Below, in pieces: positions 26,268 through 45,299 of a stretch of 45,624 nt of DNA; the first letter of the stretch is position 1, and the number at the start of each line of letters is the position of its first letter. Made by a program: the position numbers and the translations under genes. The stretch is taken from the UHGV virus genome UHGV-0133287; one strand, written 5' to 3'. The notes under the pieces are model-generated. The model did no database searches. It was given only the letters and a program-made list of their open reading frames with translations, and had not been told where the DNA came from. The stretch comes from a virus.

Positions 26268-26343
26268 TGGTGGCCCCTACCGGATTTGAACCGATGACCG
26301 TGCGATTATGAGTCGCCTGCTCTAACCACTGAGCTAAGGGGCC
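26268..26343 (-). tRNA. tRNA with CAU anticodon (Met or lysidine-type Ile2)
   Basis: 76-nt minus-strand sequence GGCCCCTTAGCTCAGTGGTTAGAGCAGGCGACTCATAATCGCACGGTCATCGGTTCAAATCCGGTAGGGGCCACCA folds by hand into a cloverleaf: 7-bp acceptor stem, GCTC/GAGC D-stem, CUCAUAA anticodon loop, TTCAAAT T-loop, encoded CCA. The 5' half resembles E. coli ileX as I recall it. Confidence 0.8.
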
Positions 26344-33953: not shown

Positions 33954-34465
33954 TGATGGCCCCCGTCATTTCTGGTGCTTTTCACCGTGCGGCTTCTTAA
34001 AAACCTGCCATCACGAACAACAGACACTTCTCGTTTACCCAACCTCATTTCACGGCGGTAACATTCAGAAAATGCCTCGTCCGGCATCATATAAATGCGA
34101 CGCTTCGCCTCCGTATCCAGAAGGGAACGGCTTGGGGTTACATATAAAAACGACTCATCAATAGGGACAAAACCACGAGCAAGAATTGCTGGCAGAATGC
34201 CAGGAAGAACGCAGAAAACAGCTCCACGATGCAGCAACATCTGGTACTCCATGACCTCCGTTATCCCCGTGACTACTGTTACGGTGTCACGTCTGTTACG
34301 GCTGGCAACCAGTCGCTGCACACGTCCAATTTTCTGATCTACAGATAGATGTTTGCTATCGTTATCAATATGATCGATAACAAATCCTTTAATCGTTTGA
34401 TCAAGGTAGTGCACCACCTGCGATTGAATCTGGTGATTATCACCAAAGAAGGCCAGAATCATCAT
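33950..34465 (-). CDS. hypothetical protein
   Basis: 171-aa ORF following the Cro-like gene; no motif recognised. Confidence 0.3.
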   Translation of the reverse strand: MMILAFFGDNHQIQSQVVHYLDQTIKGFVIDHIDNDSKHLSVDQKIGRVQRLVASRNRRDTVTVVTGITEVMEYQMLLHRGAVFCVLPGILPAILARGFVPIDESFLYVTPSRSLLDTEAKRRIYMMPDEAFSECYRREMRLGKREVSVVRDGRFLRSRTVKSTRNDGGHQ

Positions 34466-34956
34466 TCCTCAAGCCTCCCAAGTGCTGAACGCCGGGCGTT
34501 GCTAATCTCCTTATGAATCAGCTCGATATCGCTGGAATCTTTATTCTTAAGCTCCAGCACGGTAATCGCATCACGAACCTCTGAAACGGTTACGTGTGAG
34601 TGTTTCCAGCGAGCAATGAATCGCGGACCGCGTAGATTGCAACGCTCCGCAGGCATCCCCAGCTCAGAGAAAACCGCTTTCAGCCTTGATAAGCAGTTAA
34701 CAGGGAGATTCCCTTTGATCTTGTTCTGCCGAACCGATGTGCCATCGCTACGCTGGCGCTGACGTTCGGCAAAATCTGCCGCCCATTGCTGGACGTTAAT
34801 CCGGCCTTCCGAATACGCCACCAGCAGCGTCAGGTTATCCGCACGAGGGAATCTCTCGAAGCGATACCAGGCACCAATCAGTGATGACGTAAAGCCAAAC
34901 TTTCTGGCAACACCAATTTGGCCTCCATTTTCGTCAACCCACTCCTGAAAGGTCAT
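34462..34956 (-). CDS. Cro-like HTH regulator (YdaS-like) with C-terminal extension
   Basis: 164-aa ORF divergent from the CI-like gene; N-terminus GGQIGVARKFGFTSSLIGAWYRF...RINVQQ resembles YdaS/Cro-type HTH proteins. Confidence 0.5.
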   Translation of the reverse strand: MTFQEWVDENGGQIGVARKFGFTSSLIGAWYRFERFPRADNLTLLVAYSEGRINVQQWAADFAERQRQRSDGTSVRQNKIKGNLPVNCLSRLKAVFSELGMPAERCNLRGPRFIARWKHSHVTVSEVRDAITVLELKNKDSSDIELIHKEISNARRSALGRLEE

Positions 34957-34975
34957 TTAACGAACTCCAGTTAAA

Positions 34976-35093
34976 ACCACGATATGTGGTATTAAAACCA
35001 CATATCGTGAGTTTTTCAATGGGCGAAACAAAAAATAACCTTCTATTTGTGGTCCACCTCTCGTCTTACCATGTGAAAACCACTAAATGTGGT
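34976..35093. promoter_or_regulatory. immunity operator cluster (ACCAC-N5-GTGGT)
   Basis: In the 174-bp divergent intergenic region: accacgatatgtggt (34976-34990), accacatatcgtga (34997-35010), inverted gtggtccacc (about 35048-35057), accactaaatgtggt (35079-35093). A fourth site accacattttgtggt lies at 35830-35844. Confidence 0.55.
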
Positions 35094-35130
35094 AATGTAT
35101 AAATAACCCACCATTCACGATTGATGAGAC

Positions 35131-35787
35131 ATGAAAAGCAACGACGAGAACATCAAGAAAGAAATAGGTCTGCGCATTCAGACTCTACGGAAACAATCCG
35201 GCATGACTGCCGGAGATCTCCAGCAAGTCACTGGAATAGGCTTAAGCACCTTGCAGAACTATGAGGCCGGATTAAGACAACCATCTATACCTGCCATCAA
35301 GAAAATCGCGCACGCCCTAAAAGCATCAGCGCCTTACATCGCGTGCTTAACAGATAACCCGTTCCCACCCCAGAATACTAACGCTCCTGTTATTCCTGGG
35401 CTTGTAGCTATAAAAAATGACATAGCATCGCACGCCGGAGAAAAGCCTGTGCTGGCGATAGAACAGGAGATTTTACGAAGCAAGAACATCAACCCATCGT
35501 CTCTGTCAGTTCTCCAGAGCAACGATGAGTTAATGTCACCAACAATATCCCCTGGCTCCCAAGTCCTGATTAATACAGACGATACAGAGATTCATGAGGG
35601 GATCTATGCCCTTGAAGACAGAAATGGCCTAGTTGTTTTGAGGCACTGTAGAGTCATACCGGGTGACAATGCTGTTATGCTGTCAACCGAAAGGGATGCT
35701 GAAATGAACACTAAGCATCTGAATAACGAGGAATTTAAGCGTTATAAAGTTCTTGGCCGCGTAGTTAGTGTTGTCAACTGGTTATGA
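35131..35787 (+). CDS. CI-like repressor (HTH-XRE plus S24 LexA-like peptidase domain)
   Basis: 218-aa ORF with an N-terminal HTH (LRKQSGMTAGDLQQVTGIGLSTLQNYEAG) and a C-terminal S24-like domain. Confidence 0.75.
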   Translation: MKSNDENIKKEIGLRIQTLRKQSGMTAGDLQQVTGIGLSTLQNYEAGLRQPSIPAIKKIAHALKASAPYIACLTDNPFPPQNTNAPVIPGLVAIKNDIASHAGEKPVLAIEQEILRSKNINPSSLSVLQSNDELMSPTISPGSQVLINTDDTEIHEGIYALEDRNGLVVLRHCRVIPGDNAVMLSTERDAEMNTKHLNNEEFKRYKVLGRVVSVVNWL

Positions 35788-35879
35788 TACACAGCACGGC
35801 GGAAGCCGTGCATTTCTACGCTCAAAAAAACCACATTTTGTGGTTTTGACAACATGTAAAAGTATAAAAGAGGCTACGC

Positions 35880-36254
35880 ATGGAATTACATACAGCCAAT
35901 AAAAACGAAACTCTGATCACTGCTGGAATCGAAATCCAAGCGTTGAACATAGCGATTGAGTGTATGTTATGCCAAATCATTGATAATGAGAAAGATATCG
36001 ACTGGATAGAATCTATCCTTCATCTGGCATCAGAACAAAAAGTCTGCCTCAAAACGGCCTTACAATACGATGTGCCAGCGGTATCGAAGCTGTGCCAGCC
36101 ATTGATGGCATATAACAGAGCTATTATTTCTGTATGCCTCATGATTCTCGATGAAAACACCCCTCTTAGCGACCGCTCAGAAGCTGCTCTAACCCTCTCA
36201 CGTAAACAGCGACAGCTAGCAAATCAACTGATATCAACGATAGCTGACCTCTGA
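35880..36254 (+). CDS. hypothetical protein downstream of repressor
   Basis: 124-aa ORF with AAGAGG RBS; an operator-like site overlaps its promoter region; followed by a hairpin at 36259-36278. Confidence 0.35.
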   Translation: MELHTANKNETLITAGIEIQALNIAIECMLCQIIDNEKDIDWIESILHLASEQKVCLKTALQYDVPAVSKLCQPLMAYNRAIISVCLMILDENTPLSDRSEAALTLSRKQRQLANQLISTIADL

Positions 36255-36389
36255 CTGCAAGCGGGCTAACGCCCGCTTATATGATTATAGATTTATATAA
36301 TTATATAAAACGCTTTTCATCCGCCAAAAAGTTGGTTATGCTTACCTCGTTCTATAAATATAGATTTATAGAATTATATAATCAAACAC

Positions 36390-37562: not shown

Positions 37563-37586
37563 ATAAAAAAGGCCCCCGAAGGGGCC
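37563..37586 (-). terminator. intrinsic terminator (minus-strand; convergent transcription stop)
   Basis: GGCCCC-CGAA-GGGGCC hairpin preceded on the plus strand by an A run, giving a U run on the minus strand. Confidence 0.45.
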
Positions 37587-38456
37587 TAATCGCTACTTGC
37601 TGCTAATGTTTATCGTCACATTCAGAGCGTTATCAGTAATCTTCCAACCCTCCCCATGTGGCGTAAACAAAGCTCCAGTAACAACGATAAAAATACACAT
37701 ACAGTATTTTTTCATTGTGTGGCCCTTACAGGCCGTTTCACGGCATCTCCACCGACGAAAATGACGCGAGAGCAAGCACTCCGCTTGTGCTTGCGTGTAC
37801 GGCAAGTGGATGATCCTTTCCTTAAAGTCGGTGCCCGGGTGCGAATCGGCGAAAAGGCCCCAAGCCATATTACACGTCCTCGCCTTCATAATGAAGGAAT
37901 AACAATTGCTTTTATTACATGTAATTACATCCGAAGAAGTTAAAAAACTTCATTCTGCATGAACTAAGGAACTAAATTTCTTTATATGAATAGTGGACTA
38001 TTCACCTCAGTTGAGTAAGAATAGATACGCCGCTTGTGCTTGCGTGGTTGTTTACACAACGACGTTATGCTGAAAGGACCGCGAATCCGATCAGCACGAA
38101 AGAACCGTCCTCAATAGGGCGGTTTTTTTGTTTCTGCCTACCAATAAACCCACGCTATGTGGTTGTCTCTGTTAAAATCCCGCCGTATTGACATGAATGC
38201 GCCATTGGTGGACACTTTCCGAGCCGTAGCAAAATCTACGGTCGGGATTGGCGTCCCGATTGCACAATGGCGCATACCGCGTTAGCGGTTTTTTTATGCG
38301 TAAAGCACTGCTACACCCGAATTATGGTGGGGCGTGCGGGGGCGGAGAAATCCGCGCCGGTTTGTCATTGTGCCGGTTACGCCAACCCTGTACGTCTCAC
38401 CACCATATTGATTGGCGTCATTGGTGGTGATAGTTCCTTTAATCGGAGATATCACA

Positions 38457-38648
38457 ATGACAAACCTACCCCATGACTATTACGTCAACCTCGTAAAGAT
38501 CCTTCTCAAGAAAGCCTCATATGCCGATAAATTCCGCCTGGCTGAAATCATCGAGCGCGAAGCTATGCGCATCGCCAGCAACGATAACGCTGTTTCTGAC
38601 GCAAAAATCTCCCTCGTAACCAAAGTAGTTATGGGAGGTGCAAAATGA
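38457..38648 (+). CDS. small ORF translationally coupled to antirepressor (icd-like position)
   Basis: 63-aa ORF (ATG 38457, GGAG RBS) whose stop overlaps the start of the next gene (ATGA); the ORF track shows a longer version starting 38412. Confidence 0.35.
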   Translation: MTNLPHDYYVNLVKILLKKASYADKFRLAEIIEREAMRIASNDNAVSDAKISLVTKVVMGGAK

Positions 38649-39787
38649 AAACGCTTCCGACCGTTAACACCCTACAGCCTATCCTGCATAACCAGATCCC
38701 CGTTATCACTAGTGAACTTCTGGCGCAGTTATACGGAACAAAAATCAAAAACATTTCTGATAACTTTCTGAACAACACGACGCGATTCGTAGCCGGAAAG
38801 CATTACTTTAAAATTGAAAAAAACGAATTACGCGAGTTCAAGAACAGACCCGAAACAATCGGGTTAGTTGGTAAAAATGCCCGCTCCCTAATTCTCTGGA
38901 CCGAACGCGGGGCTGCACGTCACGCTAAAATGCTCGAAACCGATCAGGCGTGGGATGTATTCGAACGGCTGGAAGACTGCTATTTCAGCCAGAACGCGCA
39001 AACGGCCGCGACCGTAACCGTCTCGCCAAACAATGCTCGTGAGGTTGTCGATACGCTCAACGCCAAACCGATGTTTTACATTAAGGTGTGCAATAACGAG
39101 CCACTCACAACCTCAGCCGATGTTGCCCAGGCATTCAGCACCACAAACAATTCCATCGTTATGGCCATCGATGCGTTACGCATTCCTCGCACAGCTGCGG
39201 CGCGTCATTTCTTTAAAGAGCAACGACCGTTGGAAGGAAGCGACCGCGAAATAACAATCTATCGCATGACAAAAGACGGATTTACCTTGCTCATGGAGAG
39301 CATCGACGGTCCCGGCGTGAAAGATATCAAGCTGGCCTACATTGAAGCCTTTAACGCTATCAGCAGCGTGTTAAAAACACAGTACGAGCGCGATCTGGCT
39401 AAACGACTGTACCAGGAAAAAACGATTATCCGCGCGGCAACAGAGCATAATCGGCTATTAACGGAACCGAACTACAGGAAGGAACTAATCAAGGAGTTTG
39501 ACAAGGCAACAGGGAAAACCAAAGCGGCGCTAAATCTGCCAGCAATGACTCAGGAAAATGTGATATCAGCCTTACTTCTTGATCTACTCAGAAACGCCAG
39601 AGCACTTATCAGCTTTGACGAAAACCTGAATCCTCAACTCAAGCTACTACCACCGACAGGCAAAGTAGTCGACCAGGCTGATCACAACAGCATACTCAGC
39701 GTACTGGATGCAAACCTGCCAACCAGGACACTACAGGATCTGATAAAAACATGTGCTGATAAGCTGGCACAGAAAAGCAGACCATAA
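38645..39787 (+). CDS. putative antirepressor / phage regulatory protein
   Basis: 380-aa ORF whose N-terminal ~110 aa (ITSELLAQLYG...GAARHAKMLETDQAWDVFERLEDCYF) resembles anti-repressor N-domains; preceded by an about 700-bp structured leader. Confidence 0.45.
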   Translation: MKTLPTVNTLQPILHNQIPVITSELLAQLYGTKIKNISDNFLNNTTRFVAGKHYFKIEKNELREFKNRPETIGLVGKNARSLILWTERGAARHAKMLETDQAWDVFERLEDCYFSQNAQTAATVTVSPNNAREVVDTLNAKPMFYIKVCNNEPLTTSADVAQAFSTTNNSIVMAIDALRIPRTAAARHFFKEQRPLEGSDREITIYRMTKDGFTLLMESIDGPGVKDIKLAYIEAFNAISSVLKTQYERDLAKRLYQEKTIIRAATEHNRLLTEPNYRKELIKEFDKATGKTKAALNLPAMTQENVISALLLDLLRNARALISFDENLNPQLKLLPPTGKVVDQADHNSILSVLDANLPTRTLQDLIKTCADKLAQKSRP

Positions 39788-43585: not shown

Positions 43586-44563
43586 TTAATGTTGGAGTGA
43601 TTTCCAAGTCTTTCTTAACCTGTTATAACGCTGCTCAACGAGGGATCGTAAATATGCAAGGTCAGCTCCAGGATACATGCCATCAGCAAATTCCTGGCTA
43701 ACCTCTCTAGTGATTTGATGACGAAGTTCGGCCTCTCCCTTTTCCCGAACAAGACGCGCAGCTCTCTCCGCTGCTTTCTGTTTTGCCTTTATCTCTCTGG
43801 CCGTCTTCCTCTGACGCCATACATTCTCCATCTGCTCCTGAATAACAATACGCTTATAATCAGCCTCCGTTATCGCTTTTTTAAGCCGTTCGCTATTCTT
43901 CGCATTGAAGTAATTAAGTTTCTGGCTAACCGCACGTCTCCATGCTTGTTCAGTAATACCAACGGTTTCCAGCAGTTGATCACGAATCTCTATTTTCGCT
44001 GGCCAATACTGTTTATTCACCCGATCCCAGCGACGTTCATAATCAATAAAACCTAACGCTTTCAGTTGCGACAACGCCCTTGTACAGCGCGTTATAGACT
44101 TGTTCCCAGCTTCGGATACGGTAGACAGACCGCAAAAATCAGCCAACGCCTCAGCACTGGCCAGAACCCGCTTAGAAATGATGTTTACATGGTGCAAAAT
44201 CGCAGCAATCACAGCATTAATCGCCCGACGACGATGCTCGTTTATCCGGCGTTTCCGCTCTGACGGTTGATTAACGTAGAACGCAACCTCACACGTAAGA
44301 TCACGACCATTAATGCGCTGTAAAGCATCAGATAACACCAGCGGCAGCTTGTGCGTATGGTGCTTTGGAGGCTGGAACTCCGGCGACAAATTACAAACGT
44401 AAGCTGAACGTAGAGACGGCATTGGTCTATCCATATGTTCGCTCTTGCGTCCACGGAAAACCAACGTATAATGGGAGTTGTCGAGGCGCCCATGGTTAAT
44501 TGTTGGTTTTCCGTGGATGTCGCAAGAAGCCCGCAGATTTATCTGCGGGCTTTTTGTTTCCAT
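43586..44563 (-). CDS. repA: replication initiator RepA (IncFII RepA1-like)
   Basis: The central region (GLSTVSEAGNKSITRCTRALSQLKALGFIDYE) resembles IncFII RepA1 (...SITRATRALTFLSELGLITYQTEYD...) as I recall it. The true start may be the internal ATG at 44434 (MDRPMPSL, about 283 aa), because the first 43 codons overlap a putative antisense RNA and hairpin. Confidence 0.75.
   Translation of the reverse strand: METKSPQINLRASCDIHGKPTINHGRLDNSHYTLVFRGRKSEHMDRPMPSLRSAYVCNLSPEFQPPKHHTHKLPLVLSDALQRINGRDLTCEVAFYVNQPSERKRRINEHRRRAINAVIAAILHHVNIISKRVLASAEALADFCGLSTVSEAGNKSITRCTRALSQLKALGFIDYERRWDRVNKQYWPAKIEIRDQLLETVGITEQAWRRAVSQKLNYFNAKNSERLKKAITEADYKRIVIQEQMENVWRQRKTAREIKAKQKAAERAARLVREKGEAELRHQITREVSQEFADGMYPGADLAYLRSLVEQRYNRLRKTWKSLQH
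44479..44560 (+). ncRNA. candidate CopA-like antisense RNA to the repA leader
   Basis: Plus-strand promoter -35 TTGCGT (44445-44450), 16-bp spacer, -10 TATAAT (44467-44472), then about 80 nt ending in a perfect 12-bp hairpin AAGCCCGCAGAT-TT-ATCTGCGGGCTT plus TTTGTTT (44527-44560), antisense to the repA 5' region. Confidence 0.5.
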
Positions 44564-44598: not shown

Positions 44599-44615
44599 AA
44601 CCACGTTACGTGGTT
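44599..44615. promoter_or_regulatory. 17-bp palindrome upstream of repA
   Basis: AACCACGT-T-ACGTGGTT perfect inverted repeat in the repA promoter-proximal region. Confidence 0.3.
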
Positions 44616-44744: not shown

Positions 44745-45299
44745 TCAATGATTCCCAGCCGGAAACCTGCGGTAAAGCGTGGATAAGGTAACATCGAAGA
44801 TAATCGCTATCCGCTTACGTGAAACACCATTCGCAATAAGCCTTCCGATCTGTTCCCATTGCTCTGGTGCCAGCTTTGAGCGGCGTCCTCCTATCCTGCC
44901 GTTAGCCCTTGCCACCGCCAATCCTGCACGCGTTCTTTCAATCATATTTTCCCGCTCCATCTCTGCGACTGCACTCAGCATCGTGTAGGCAAAGCGGCCA
45001 ATTGAAGTGCTAATTTTTATCCCTTCCGTAATCGAAATAAACTCAATGTCGTTTGATAAAAAATGGTTAAGTAAATCAACAAGATGAATCAGAGAACGCC
45101 CCATTCGGTCCAGCTTCCAGACAATAACCGTATCGCCCGGTCGTAACACCTTCAGTAGCTTATCAAGTCCTGGTCGTTTTGATTTAGCACCGGATATTTT
45201 ATCTTCAAAAATCCGGTCACATCCTGAACTCCTGAGCGCCTCCAGTTGTAATTCCAAATTCTGGTCAAAAGTTGACACCCTCGCATAACCATATTGCAT
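44745..45299 (-). CDS. serine recombinase, DNA invertase (Gin/Hin/Cin/Pin family)
   Basis: 184-aa ORF opening MQYGYARVSTFDQNLELQLEAL..., with the conserved catalytic Ser region and a C-terminal HTH; strongly resembles Gin. Confidence 0.85.
   Translation of the reverse strand: MQYGYARVSTFDQNLELQLEALRSSGCDRIFEDKISGAKSKRPGLDKLLKVLRPGDTVIVWKLDRMGRSLIHLVDLLNHFLSNDIEFISITEGIKISTSIGRFAYTMLSAVAEMERENMIERTRAGLAVARANGRIGGRRSKLAPEQWEQIGRLIANGVSRKRIAIIFDVTLSTLYRRFPAGNH

Follow-up and report, generated by a model that had tools for sequence, protein, structure and literature searches.

Predicted operators of a prophage repressor in the immunity, replication and antirepressor regions of an IncFII-type phage-plasmid

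The viral genome UHGV-0133287, of which 45,624 nucleotides were analysed (the window), belongs to a family of phage-plasmids and carries two divergent genes separated by an intergenic region of 174 bp (34957-35130). To the right lies the gene for a CI-like repressor of 218 residues, to the left the gene for a protein of 164 residues, each read from a single open reading frame (ORF; 35131-35787 and 34462-34956, respectively). A first-pass annotation made from the sequence had delimited this gap exactly and had interpreted it as a lambda-style immunity switch with palindromic operators of the type ACCAC-N5-GTGGT. The leftward strand continues beyond the 164-residue protein with genes for Ref, DUF1064 and DUF3560 proteins, then lysis genes and then structural genes. 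To the right the repressor gene is followed by a terminator-like hairpin, a palindrome and a conserved gene, orf124, which is syntenic in all relatives. The same palindrome recurs further to the right, upstream of an antirepressor module and upstream of repA, the gene for plasmid replication. The features considered here are listed in Table 1.

Table 1. Positions of genes, predicted control elements and operator-like sites in the UHGV-0133287 window
Feature	Position	Strand	Remarks
164-residue 'Cro-like' protein, first gene of the leftward (lytic) operon	34462..34956	-	ORF; PHROG 7452
O1, ACCACGATATGTGGT	34976..34990		Extends over the start point predicted for the leftward promoter; exact match; in all six close lineages, with varying spacers
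Predicted leftward early promoter, TTGAAA-17-TTTAAT	34991..35019	-	-35 at 35019->35014, -10 at 34996->34991
O2, ACCACATATCGTGAG	34997..35011		Imperfect, two mismatches in the right half; 21 bp centre-to-centre from O1
Conserved block, CCTTCTnTTnGTGGT	35039..35053		Lone right half-site; invariant columns in the six-lineage alignment; repeat-family member D3
O3, ACCACTAAATGTGGT	35079..35093		38 bp before the repressor start codon; exact match; half-sites without differences among lineages
CI-like prophage repressor, 218 residues	35131..35787	+	Xre-type helix-turn-helix plus degenerate, predicted non-catalytic S24-like C-terminal domain
Terminator-like hairpin, GCACGGC-GGAA-GCCGTGC plus T-rich tail	35794..35817	+	After the repressor gene; read from the sequence
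O4, ACCACATTTTGTGGT	35830..35844		Highest symmetry of all sites (AAAAACCAC...GTGGTTTT); flanked by the repressor terminator and orf124; exact match
orf124, conserved protein, function not known	35880..36254	+	PHROG 7632, no Pfam hit; own terminator-like hairpin
O6, CCCACGCTATGTGGT	38149..38163		Operator-like, one mismatch; an extended -10, TGTTAAAAT (38170-38178), follows after 6 nt
P1 immI-like RNA module	38210..38407	+	C4 target-like/isrK-like element 38210-38295; C4 antisense RNA 38320-38407
63-residue ORF, in the position of P1 icd	38457..38648	+	Overlaps the antirepressor start
Antirepressor, 380 residues	38645..39787	+	ORF6N 73.8 bits, Phage_pRha 47.5 bits; PHROG anti-repressor matches down to E = 1e-66
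IncFII-type RepA	43586..44434	-	PF02387, 150.5 bits (cut-off 22.9)
Putative countertranscript antisense to the repA leader	44446..44560	+	Two long stem-loops, the second with a T-tail
O5, ACCACGTTACGTGGT	44600..44614		Perfect 17-bp palindrome with flanks, in the repA leader; exact match
Predicted upstream repA promoter, TTGACT-16-TATGAT	44748->44721	-	Operator-free; conserved in all relatives including Serratia

There are four exact matches to ACCAC-N5-GTGGT in the window (O1, O3, O4 and O5). The chance expectation is 0.02 ± 0.14 exact sites and none of 100 shuffles reached four. An unbiased repeat finder recovers the same family of sites, with the addition of a lone half-site near 35046-35053. 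The palindromes are real and non-random. Where at least three intergenic palindromes had been counted earlier, the gap holds two perfect sites, a third (O2) that is imperfect, and the conserved lone half-site TTTGTGGT (about 35046-35053); the conserved block that contains the last is possibly a weak or auxiliary site. The fourth site that had been placed downstream of the repressor gene is present there as an exact match. The statement that the motif occurs nowhere else in the window proved incorrect, however, since O5 is an exact copy upstream of repA and O6 is a copy with one mismatch upstream of the C4 RNA/antirepressor module. These two overlooked sites are the most informative of the set. 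When flanking positions are included the operator consensus extends to AAA-ACCAC-N5-GTGGT-TTT. We also note that in the lineage of the window, and only there, O1 is an almost perfect reverse complement of O2, creating a 34-bp hyper-palindrome (34977-35010) that is flagged as a terminator on both strands.

Syntenic close relatives were available from Salmonella (plasmid pAR-0407-1 and a contig of a second Salmonella) and as contigs of Citrobacter amalonaticus, Klebsiella aerogenes and Yokenella, with repressors that share 60-66% sequence identity with that of the window. Across the six lineages five sites hold their position, with O5 present wherever the contig reaches the repA region. At orthologous sites, 0-5% of lineage pairs differ over the ten half-site positions, as against 17-49% over the five spacer positions. 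The pooled consensus, AAA(A/C)CCAC-N5-GTGG(T/G)TTT, carries 2 bits of information at CCAC and GTGG and less than 0.8 bit in the spacer. The spacing of O1 and O2 is an invariant 21 bp in all lineages and O3 follows 81-83 bp further on. O4 is retained in all six lineages at a distance of 751-759 bp from O3 (751 bp in the window), and O5 is conserved with varying spacers in four other elements (L004, L006, L009 and L023). The right half of O2 is imperfect in every lineage, being GTGGG or GTGAG, which suggests a deliberately weaker site. The stem of the repressor terminator is also conserved in all lineages while its loop changes, and a run of T follows in each case.

More distant syntenic clades are represented by Serratia plasmid p2, with a repressor only 33% identical to that of the window, and by IMG/VR contigs L024-L028, in which the identity to the window is about 30% for the repressor, 38-41% for the 164-residue protein and 27-35% for RepA. 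The first scan of viral contigs had returned near-identical copies only, and two scans of genome contigs gave no matches. Sites are found in these clades at the same places as in the window. In the clade of L026 the intergenic sites are of the type ACTAC as well as ACCAC, the lone half-site reads GTAGT as against GTGGT in the window, and the repA site is ACTAC-N5-GTAGC, matching in type the main operators of that clade. At the same time the start of the recognition helix of the repressor reads PRSTLQNYE in the distant clades compared to GLSTLQNYE in the window clade. The covariation of repressor, main operators and repA site that these sequences point to is suggestive, not clean.

The repressor (accession WP_000839976.1) has a well-defined helix-turn-helix (HTH) domain. 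The Pfam HTH_3 match scores 43 bits, the AlphaFold2 model has a predicted local distance difference test (pLDDT) value of about 90 over residues 10-60, the HTH, and 56 overall, and a search of PDB sequences matched the HTH domain only. PHROG repressor families match over the full length, PHROG 4 'transcriptional repressor' with E = 1e-26. Residues T34-G47, which include the recognition helix STLQNYEAG, are invariant across the family though overall identity falls to 33%. The protein had been described as HTH plus S24. The first half of that description is secure, but the S24 match is only 18.4 bits against a Pfam threshold of 23.3 and the catalytic residues are replaced. Homologues give S24 scores of 18.6-20 bits, and among the 13 database clusters of the repressor family there is none with a precomputed Pfam S24 domain. 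A profile search, run over 1.84 billion representatives, connects the family with numerous HTH repressors about 210 residues long. In an alignment that also includes LexA, these repressors grade into proteins with the canonical G-D-S-M-x-P ... K-R-L residues. Comparison with single LexA or lambda CI sequences using hhalign was uninformative and was replaced by multiple alignments that include intermediate homologues. In two such alignments an invariant leucine, Leu134 (motif D-E-L-M), is placed on Ser119 of LexA and Ser149 of lambda CI, and an invariant arginine, Arg171 (motif L-R-H-C-R), on Lys156 of LexA and Lys192 of lambda CI. An Ala-Gly dipeptide, which like Cys-Gly can serve as the cleavage site, is found in the linker of the window copy but is not conserved across the family. 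In the Escherichia coli ATCC 25922 copy (L023 22659-23321) two residues, KL, are inserted in the degenerate DELMSP motif to give DEL-KL-MSP. Because the Ser/Lys dyad is replaced by Leu/Arg and there is no conserved Ala-Gly, the repressor is predicted not to be self-cleaving and RecA-stimulated autocleavage is unlikely. The RecA-cleavage tests proposed with the first-pass annotation do not therefore fit this repressor.

The 164-residue protein is kept at 38-76% identity in all related phage-plasmids. The label 'Cro-like' given to its gene finds weak support in the N-terminal segment, where residues 4-46 align with P22 Cro in hhalign (E = 6e-4, 29% probability, with the P22 sequence entered by hand). 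Cro proteins of the lambda type are small, about 60-75 residues; the present protein has 164 residues and no Pfam hit. It gave no match to Pfam, NCBI-style or PDB sequences, and Foldseek with a low-confidence model returned nothing significant, the best Cro-like match having E = 7.5. The label is plausible for about the first 50 residues; the C-terminal region of about 100 residues has no function explained by matches. The predicted leftward promoter is the best scorer of the region in a position weight matrix (PWM) scan and its geometry recurs in orthologous regions. The spacer of this promoter consists of O2 plus 2 nt, and the 6 bp that separate O1 from O2 are precisely the -10 hexamer. For the repressor gene we identify by eye only a candidate extended -10, TGGTAATGT (35090-35098), in which the TG is contributed by the right half of O3. 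O4 is separated by 17 nt from the repressor terminator on its upstream side and by 36 nt from orf124 on its downstream side.

The longest repA ORF extends to 44563 and would encode 325 residues (326 as annotated by the Prokaryotic Genome Annotation Pipeline, PGAP, in E. coli), running through the hairpins of the leader. Orthologues from Salmonella and Citrobacter are annotated at 277 residues and the Pfam domain begins after an internal methionine at 44434. The long form is probably over-extended and this methionine the start. PLSDB types the Serratia relative as IncFII. Downstream of the operator-free promoter there is an extended -10, TGGTAGAGT (44632->44624), and O5 starts 9 nt further, at about +4 to +18 of the promoter so defined. 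The extended -10, TGnTAGAGT, is conserved in every clade, including those where RepA is only about 30% identical, and there too the site follows at 9-11 nt. The putative countertranscript has a minimum free energy of -69.5 kcal/mol (z = -9.7) and its terminator-like part is matched by unrelated Rfam models. The Rfam CopA model gave no match in the repA leader at a permissive threshold, and the leader has no nucleotide relatives in PLSDB outside this phage-plasmid family. There is no copB ORF and no room for one, with about 180 bp between the recombinase gene and the leader. In classical IncFII plasmids repA is driven by a constitutive upstream promoter and a downstream promoter repressed by CopB. 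By analogy, the phage operator O5 appears in the position of the CopB site. That binding of the repressor at O5 represses repA and sets the copy number is a prediction we narrowly favour.

The region that follows O6 constitutes a second immunity region, one that was not mentioned in the earlier annotation. The C4 RNA matches the Rfam family C4 (RF01695) with 75.2 bits (gathering threshold 45) and the preceding element matches isrK with 67.3 bits (gathering threshold 50). A match to c4-a1b1 (RF03163) at 38210-38262, overlapping that to isrK, scores 41.7 bits, below its gathering threshold of 46.7. The succession of C4 RNA, small ORF and antirepressor is the layout of immI in P1 and P7. A second predicted promoter, TTGACA-17-GACACT (38188-38216), is situated downstream of O6 and is conserved in all lineages, and an O6 equivalent followed by TGGTAGATT is found in three of the related elements (L006, L008 and L009). 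In one otherwise near-identical plasmid, L002 (NZ_CP173594.1), the antirepressor is annotated as two pseudogene fragments (37579-38721) that correspond to the ORF6N and Rha parts. Copies with a broken antirepressor may be locked in the plasmid state.

These observations can be combined. The sites are very probably functional operators of a phage-encoded regulator. We infer which protein binds them, where the promoters lie and which way each regulatory effect runs. The 218-residue protein is the preferred binder, because its invariant recognition helix parallels the invariant half-sites and because the sites lie ahead of its own gene and on either side of it, the placement expected of an autoregulated repressor. 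Overall, we assign a probability of about 0.7 to the reading that the palindromes are the operators of the 218-residue HTH repressor and that they serve an immunity logic of the N15/P1 type.

The following mechanism would then apply. Repressor dimers on O1 and O2, 21 bp or two helical turns apart, would sit over the spacer of the leftward promoter and over its start point, and their occupancy would silence transcription into the whole lytic gene set. Since O3 overlaps the candidate promoter of the repressor gene, binding there would provide autoregulation. At O5 the repressor would take the place of CopB, holding replication at a plasmid level during lysogeny and releasing it for lytic replication. 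O6, a weaker site, might gate one of the two promoters of the operon of C4 RNA, small ORF and antirepressor. O4 could serve either in repression of orf124 or as a roadblock before it, or it could pair with the main operator cluster by looping over a long range. The antirepressor would bring about induction, and the C4 RNA would add a further lock.

Other explanations for the sites deserve consideration. A different phage protein, for example the 164-residue product, might be the main binder of the palindromes, leaving the 218-residue protein as a different regulator. The 164-residue protein does co-occur with the sites in every clade, its N-terminus weakly resembles an all-helical Cro, and a Cro protein normally shares the operators of the repressor. 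The sites, however, flank or overlap the promoter region of the 218-residue gene, whose product has the confident Xre-type HTH with its invariant helix, and no match to a DNA-binding family was found for the 164-residue protein. We regard this alternative as unlikely. A strict lambda-type switch, in which a self-cleaving S24 repressor is inactivated by activated RecA, the 164-residue protein is Cro and the distal site is the equivalent of OL, would account for the divergent layout and the clustered operators, and it could draw on the weak S24 match and the 'AG' in the linker of the window copy. It is at odds with the leucine and arginine found family-wide at the equivalents of Ser119 and Lys156, with an AG that is not conserved, with the insertion in the motif of the ATCC 25922 protein and the complete lack of precomputed S24 domains in the family, with a 'Cro' of 164 residues that has no Pfam match, and with the presence of a dedicated antirepressor with its C4 RNA. 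Such a switch is very improbable.

Individual sites might also have a more local origin. The site at 44600-44614 could belong to the replicon's own control, whether autoregulation by RepA, a host factor or an RNA hairpin, and match the phage operators by coincidence. It is placed in a transcribed leader beside elements of antisense-RNA control, and a stem of 6 bp with a 5-nt loop could form. Against this, even one exact match is unlikely, with 0.02 expected for the window as a whole; the half-sites are fixed while the 5-nt 'loop' changes freely, and the stem shows no compensatory changes; the site of a distant clade shifts to the ACTAC type of the main operators of that clade; and N15 provides a direct precedent for a repressor site at repA (PMC4997575). 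We consider coincidence here improbable. The proposal that O1 and O2 together form one 34-bp hairpin, cruciform or bidirectional terminator is scarcely credible. In its favour, the segment 34977-35010 is an inverted repeat of 13-14 bp with T-runs on both sides and the terminator scan flags both strands, but in L004 and L006-L009 the five central nucleotides of O1 show no complementarity to those of O2, and the 15-mer is found as a single copy at each of three further loci. Complementarity beyond the half-sites is specific to the window lineage and the hairpin was rejected on this basis.

Some points weigh against the assignment of the sites to the 218-residue repressor, or against parts of the mechanism, and should be kept in mind. 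The same sites could be bound by the 164-residue protein instead, or by it and the repressor alike. In the distant clades the sites are asymmetric, left halves being strong and right halves weak or degenerate, and this detracts from the covariation. O6 has one mismatch and is missing in L004. The PWM scan found no convincing sigma-70 promoter at O4/orf124 or at the repressor gene. Both AlphaFold2 models are poor (pLDDT 56, from shallow family alignments), and for the S24-like fold of the C-terminal domain we depend on weak sequence matches and the profile search. We caution that the LexA and lambda CI reference sequences used in assigning the dyad were entered by hand, their residue numbering following established knowledge; the alignment itself is a tool result. 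Matches to the LexA box occur at chance level with none in any regulatory region. Finally, a literature search, which included accessions and ATCC 25922, found no study describing the switch, binding, transcripts or copy number of this family. Three leads from the literature were set aside as not relevant: phage vB_YpM_HQ103 is a Peduovirus of 32 kb, the pSLy3 group falls within the SSU5 supergroup, and the phage-plasmids of enterotoxigenic E. coli are P1- or SSU5-like.

Comparisons with characterized systems inform on how the parts might work together. One of the closest is immB, the primary immunity region of the linear phage-plasmids N15, phiKO2 and PY54. The CB repressor of N15 and phiKO2 is without the Ser/Lys dyad and the cleavage site, and it binds three OR sites and in addition two OL sites at the repA promoter, where it lowers the copy number (PMC4997575). 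Shared with the present element are the loss of dyad and cleavage site from the repressor, operators between the repressor gene and the first lytic gene, and an operator at repA; in both, the prophage repressor would set the copy number. The likeness does not extend to common ancestry of the parts. A tblastn search with the repressor against 50,697 phage records (E ≤ 1e-5) detected no homology to the N15 group, the matches being to Yersinia phages, Vibrio, Aliivibrio and a few others. N15 is linear, with a protelomerase and a multidomain RepA, whereas the present element is circular, of myovirus type, and has an IncFII RepA with a putative antisense RNA. It further differs from N15 in the 164-residue 'Cro' and the extra operator before orf124, and no Q-type antiterminator was identified. 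Like the present element, N15 reportedly has a secondary immunity region, in which a small processed RNA gates an operon of icd and antirepressor.

The resemblance to P1 and P7 lies in the plasmid prophage, a master repressor that is not cleavable (here by prediction), operators scattered over the genome, and a C4 antisense RNA upstream of a small ORF and antirepressor. The C1 sites of P1 are asymmetric 17-bp sequences, and C1 controls the lytic replicon repL and is not known to control repA. In the present element the repressor is of the Xre-HTH type with symmetric 15-bp operators, the antirepressor is of the ORF6N/pRha type, and the plasmid replicon itself carries an operator. P1 C1 represses the c4-icd-ant operon, for which the C4 RNA is also needed (PMC8198154). 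A repressor site upstream of the antirepressor operon beside a second promoter may be common to both, O6 being the candidate in our case.

In common with immC of lambda and P22 there is a divergent layout with clustered palindromic operators over predicted divergent promoters and an operator beyond the repressor gene, and the repressor has an architecture of HTH plus S24-like fold. The differences are that the present repressor has neither the catalytic dyad nor the cleavage site, that two good sites and one weak site replace three graded 17-mers, that the element is not integrated, and that the operators reach replication and antirepressor genes. With regard to the IncFII plasmids R1 and R100, the RepA family, the predicted tandem repA promoters with a palindromic repressor site at the downstream one, and a putative, highly structured countertranscript region in the leader all correspond. 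The differences are the missing copB and a palindrome that is the phage immunity operator.

Of the lambda-style switch that had been proposed, the divergent genes, the clustered operators and the distal operator stand. The loss of the dyad and cleavage site, the C4/antirepressor module, and the operators at repA and at the antirepressor operon do not belong to that model. Because the repressor is predicted to be non-cleavable, because the C4/antirepressor module is present and because there are operators at repA and the antirepressor operon, the switch resembles those of N15 and P1 rather than that of lambda. By analogy it matches the logic of N15/phiKO2 almost point for point and borrows the immI design of P1, using parts that are unrelated or differently assembled.

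With respect to the element as a whole, related records are circular, and a fully annotated relative, itself a circular element, encodes a P2-like contractile tail with head and lysis genes, all on one strand, together with a plasmid module that comprises ParA, a small protein resembling ParG, a RelE/HigB toxin pair, RepA of the IncFII type and a serine recombinase. On the basis of the contractile-tail, head and lysis genes together with the plasmid module, the window is a circular myovirus-type phage-plasmid from a family of roughly 48 kb. No protelomerase is present among the annotated genes of complete relatives. Three Yersinia pestis phages of about 49 kb, vB_YpM_39, vB_YpM_41 and vB_YpM_44, display 99.4% identity to the region with every gene annotated as 'hypothetical'; that these are infective isolates supports a functional phage. 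PLSDB contains 58 non-mobilizable plasmids of 46-52 kb that are more than 95% identical to the window. Near-identical elements are common, being present in 71 of 5426 complete E. coli genomes, at 74 places of which 73 are plasmids, and also in E. albertii, E. fergusonii and Klebsiella. A member with all the operators is found in the widely used reference strain E. coli ATCC 25922 (plasmid NZ_CP009073.1, L023). More distant relatives are present in Salmonella, Citrobacter, Yokenella and Serratia. Genes of the family are currently annotated as 'hypothetical' or 'XRE family'.

Several other features of these elements merit a brief description. The serine recombinase, of the resolvase/invertase family (44745-45299 on the minus strand and beyond in the window; L023 10150-12887), adjoins tail-fibre assembly genes of opposite orientation. 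This arrangement suggests an invertible host-range segment like the G segment of Mu or the C segment of P1. The recombinase gene abuts the repA promoter directly. In Serratia marcescens YL4 p2 (L005 22710-23570) blaTEM-1 is located beside a recombinase gene, and such phage-plasmids can therefore carry resistance genes. Directly upstream of parA are AT-rich repeats, ATAGATTTATAnAATTATATAA, in four copies with inverted arrangements (36277-36389), and parA is followed by a gene for an 82-residue protein with a basic tail. Together they resemble a partition cassette of type Ib along with its centromere/operator. A match to the ryfA RNA (RF00126, 135.5 bits against a gathering threshold of 80; 37565-37862, minus strand) holds a small hydrophobic ORF (MKKYCMCIFIVVTGALF...) and looks like a small-toxin/small-RNA locus of chromosomal type on a phage-plasmid. 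The ATCC 25922 and Yersinia-phage copies have a gene for an HTH regulator in its place. A tRNA with the anticodon CAT (26268-26343, minus strand) is assigned to methionine by ARAGORN and in the phage record and to isoleucine by PGAP in a relative; it may be a lysidine-type tRNA-Ile2. In the late region of L002 (18486-22366) three proteins with ParB/Srx N-terminal domains and an MT-A70 methyltransferase are encoded upstream of the terminase genes.

What would this arrangement mean for the family? At its fullest, the model has the prophage repressor replacing CopB as governor of an IncFII replicon, such that one catalytically dead S24-type repressor would hold the lytic promoter, the copy number, the RNA-gated antirepressor operon and orf124. 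Induction would then be entirely independent of RecA cleavage and would set off runaway replication, driven by the very RepA on which prophage maintenance depends. We place this version at even odds. The reading based on N15/P1 logic corrects the expectation of induction through SOS cleavage. It extends a known logic and overturns nothing, and in that sense is only moderately surprising. It would nonetheless provide, beside N15, a second and independent case of a prophage repressor wired into plasmid replication, here on an IncFII replicon, and the defined set of operators offers a testable map of how these elements may choose between plasmid maintenance and lysis.

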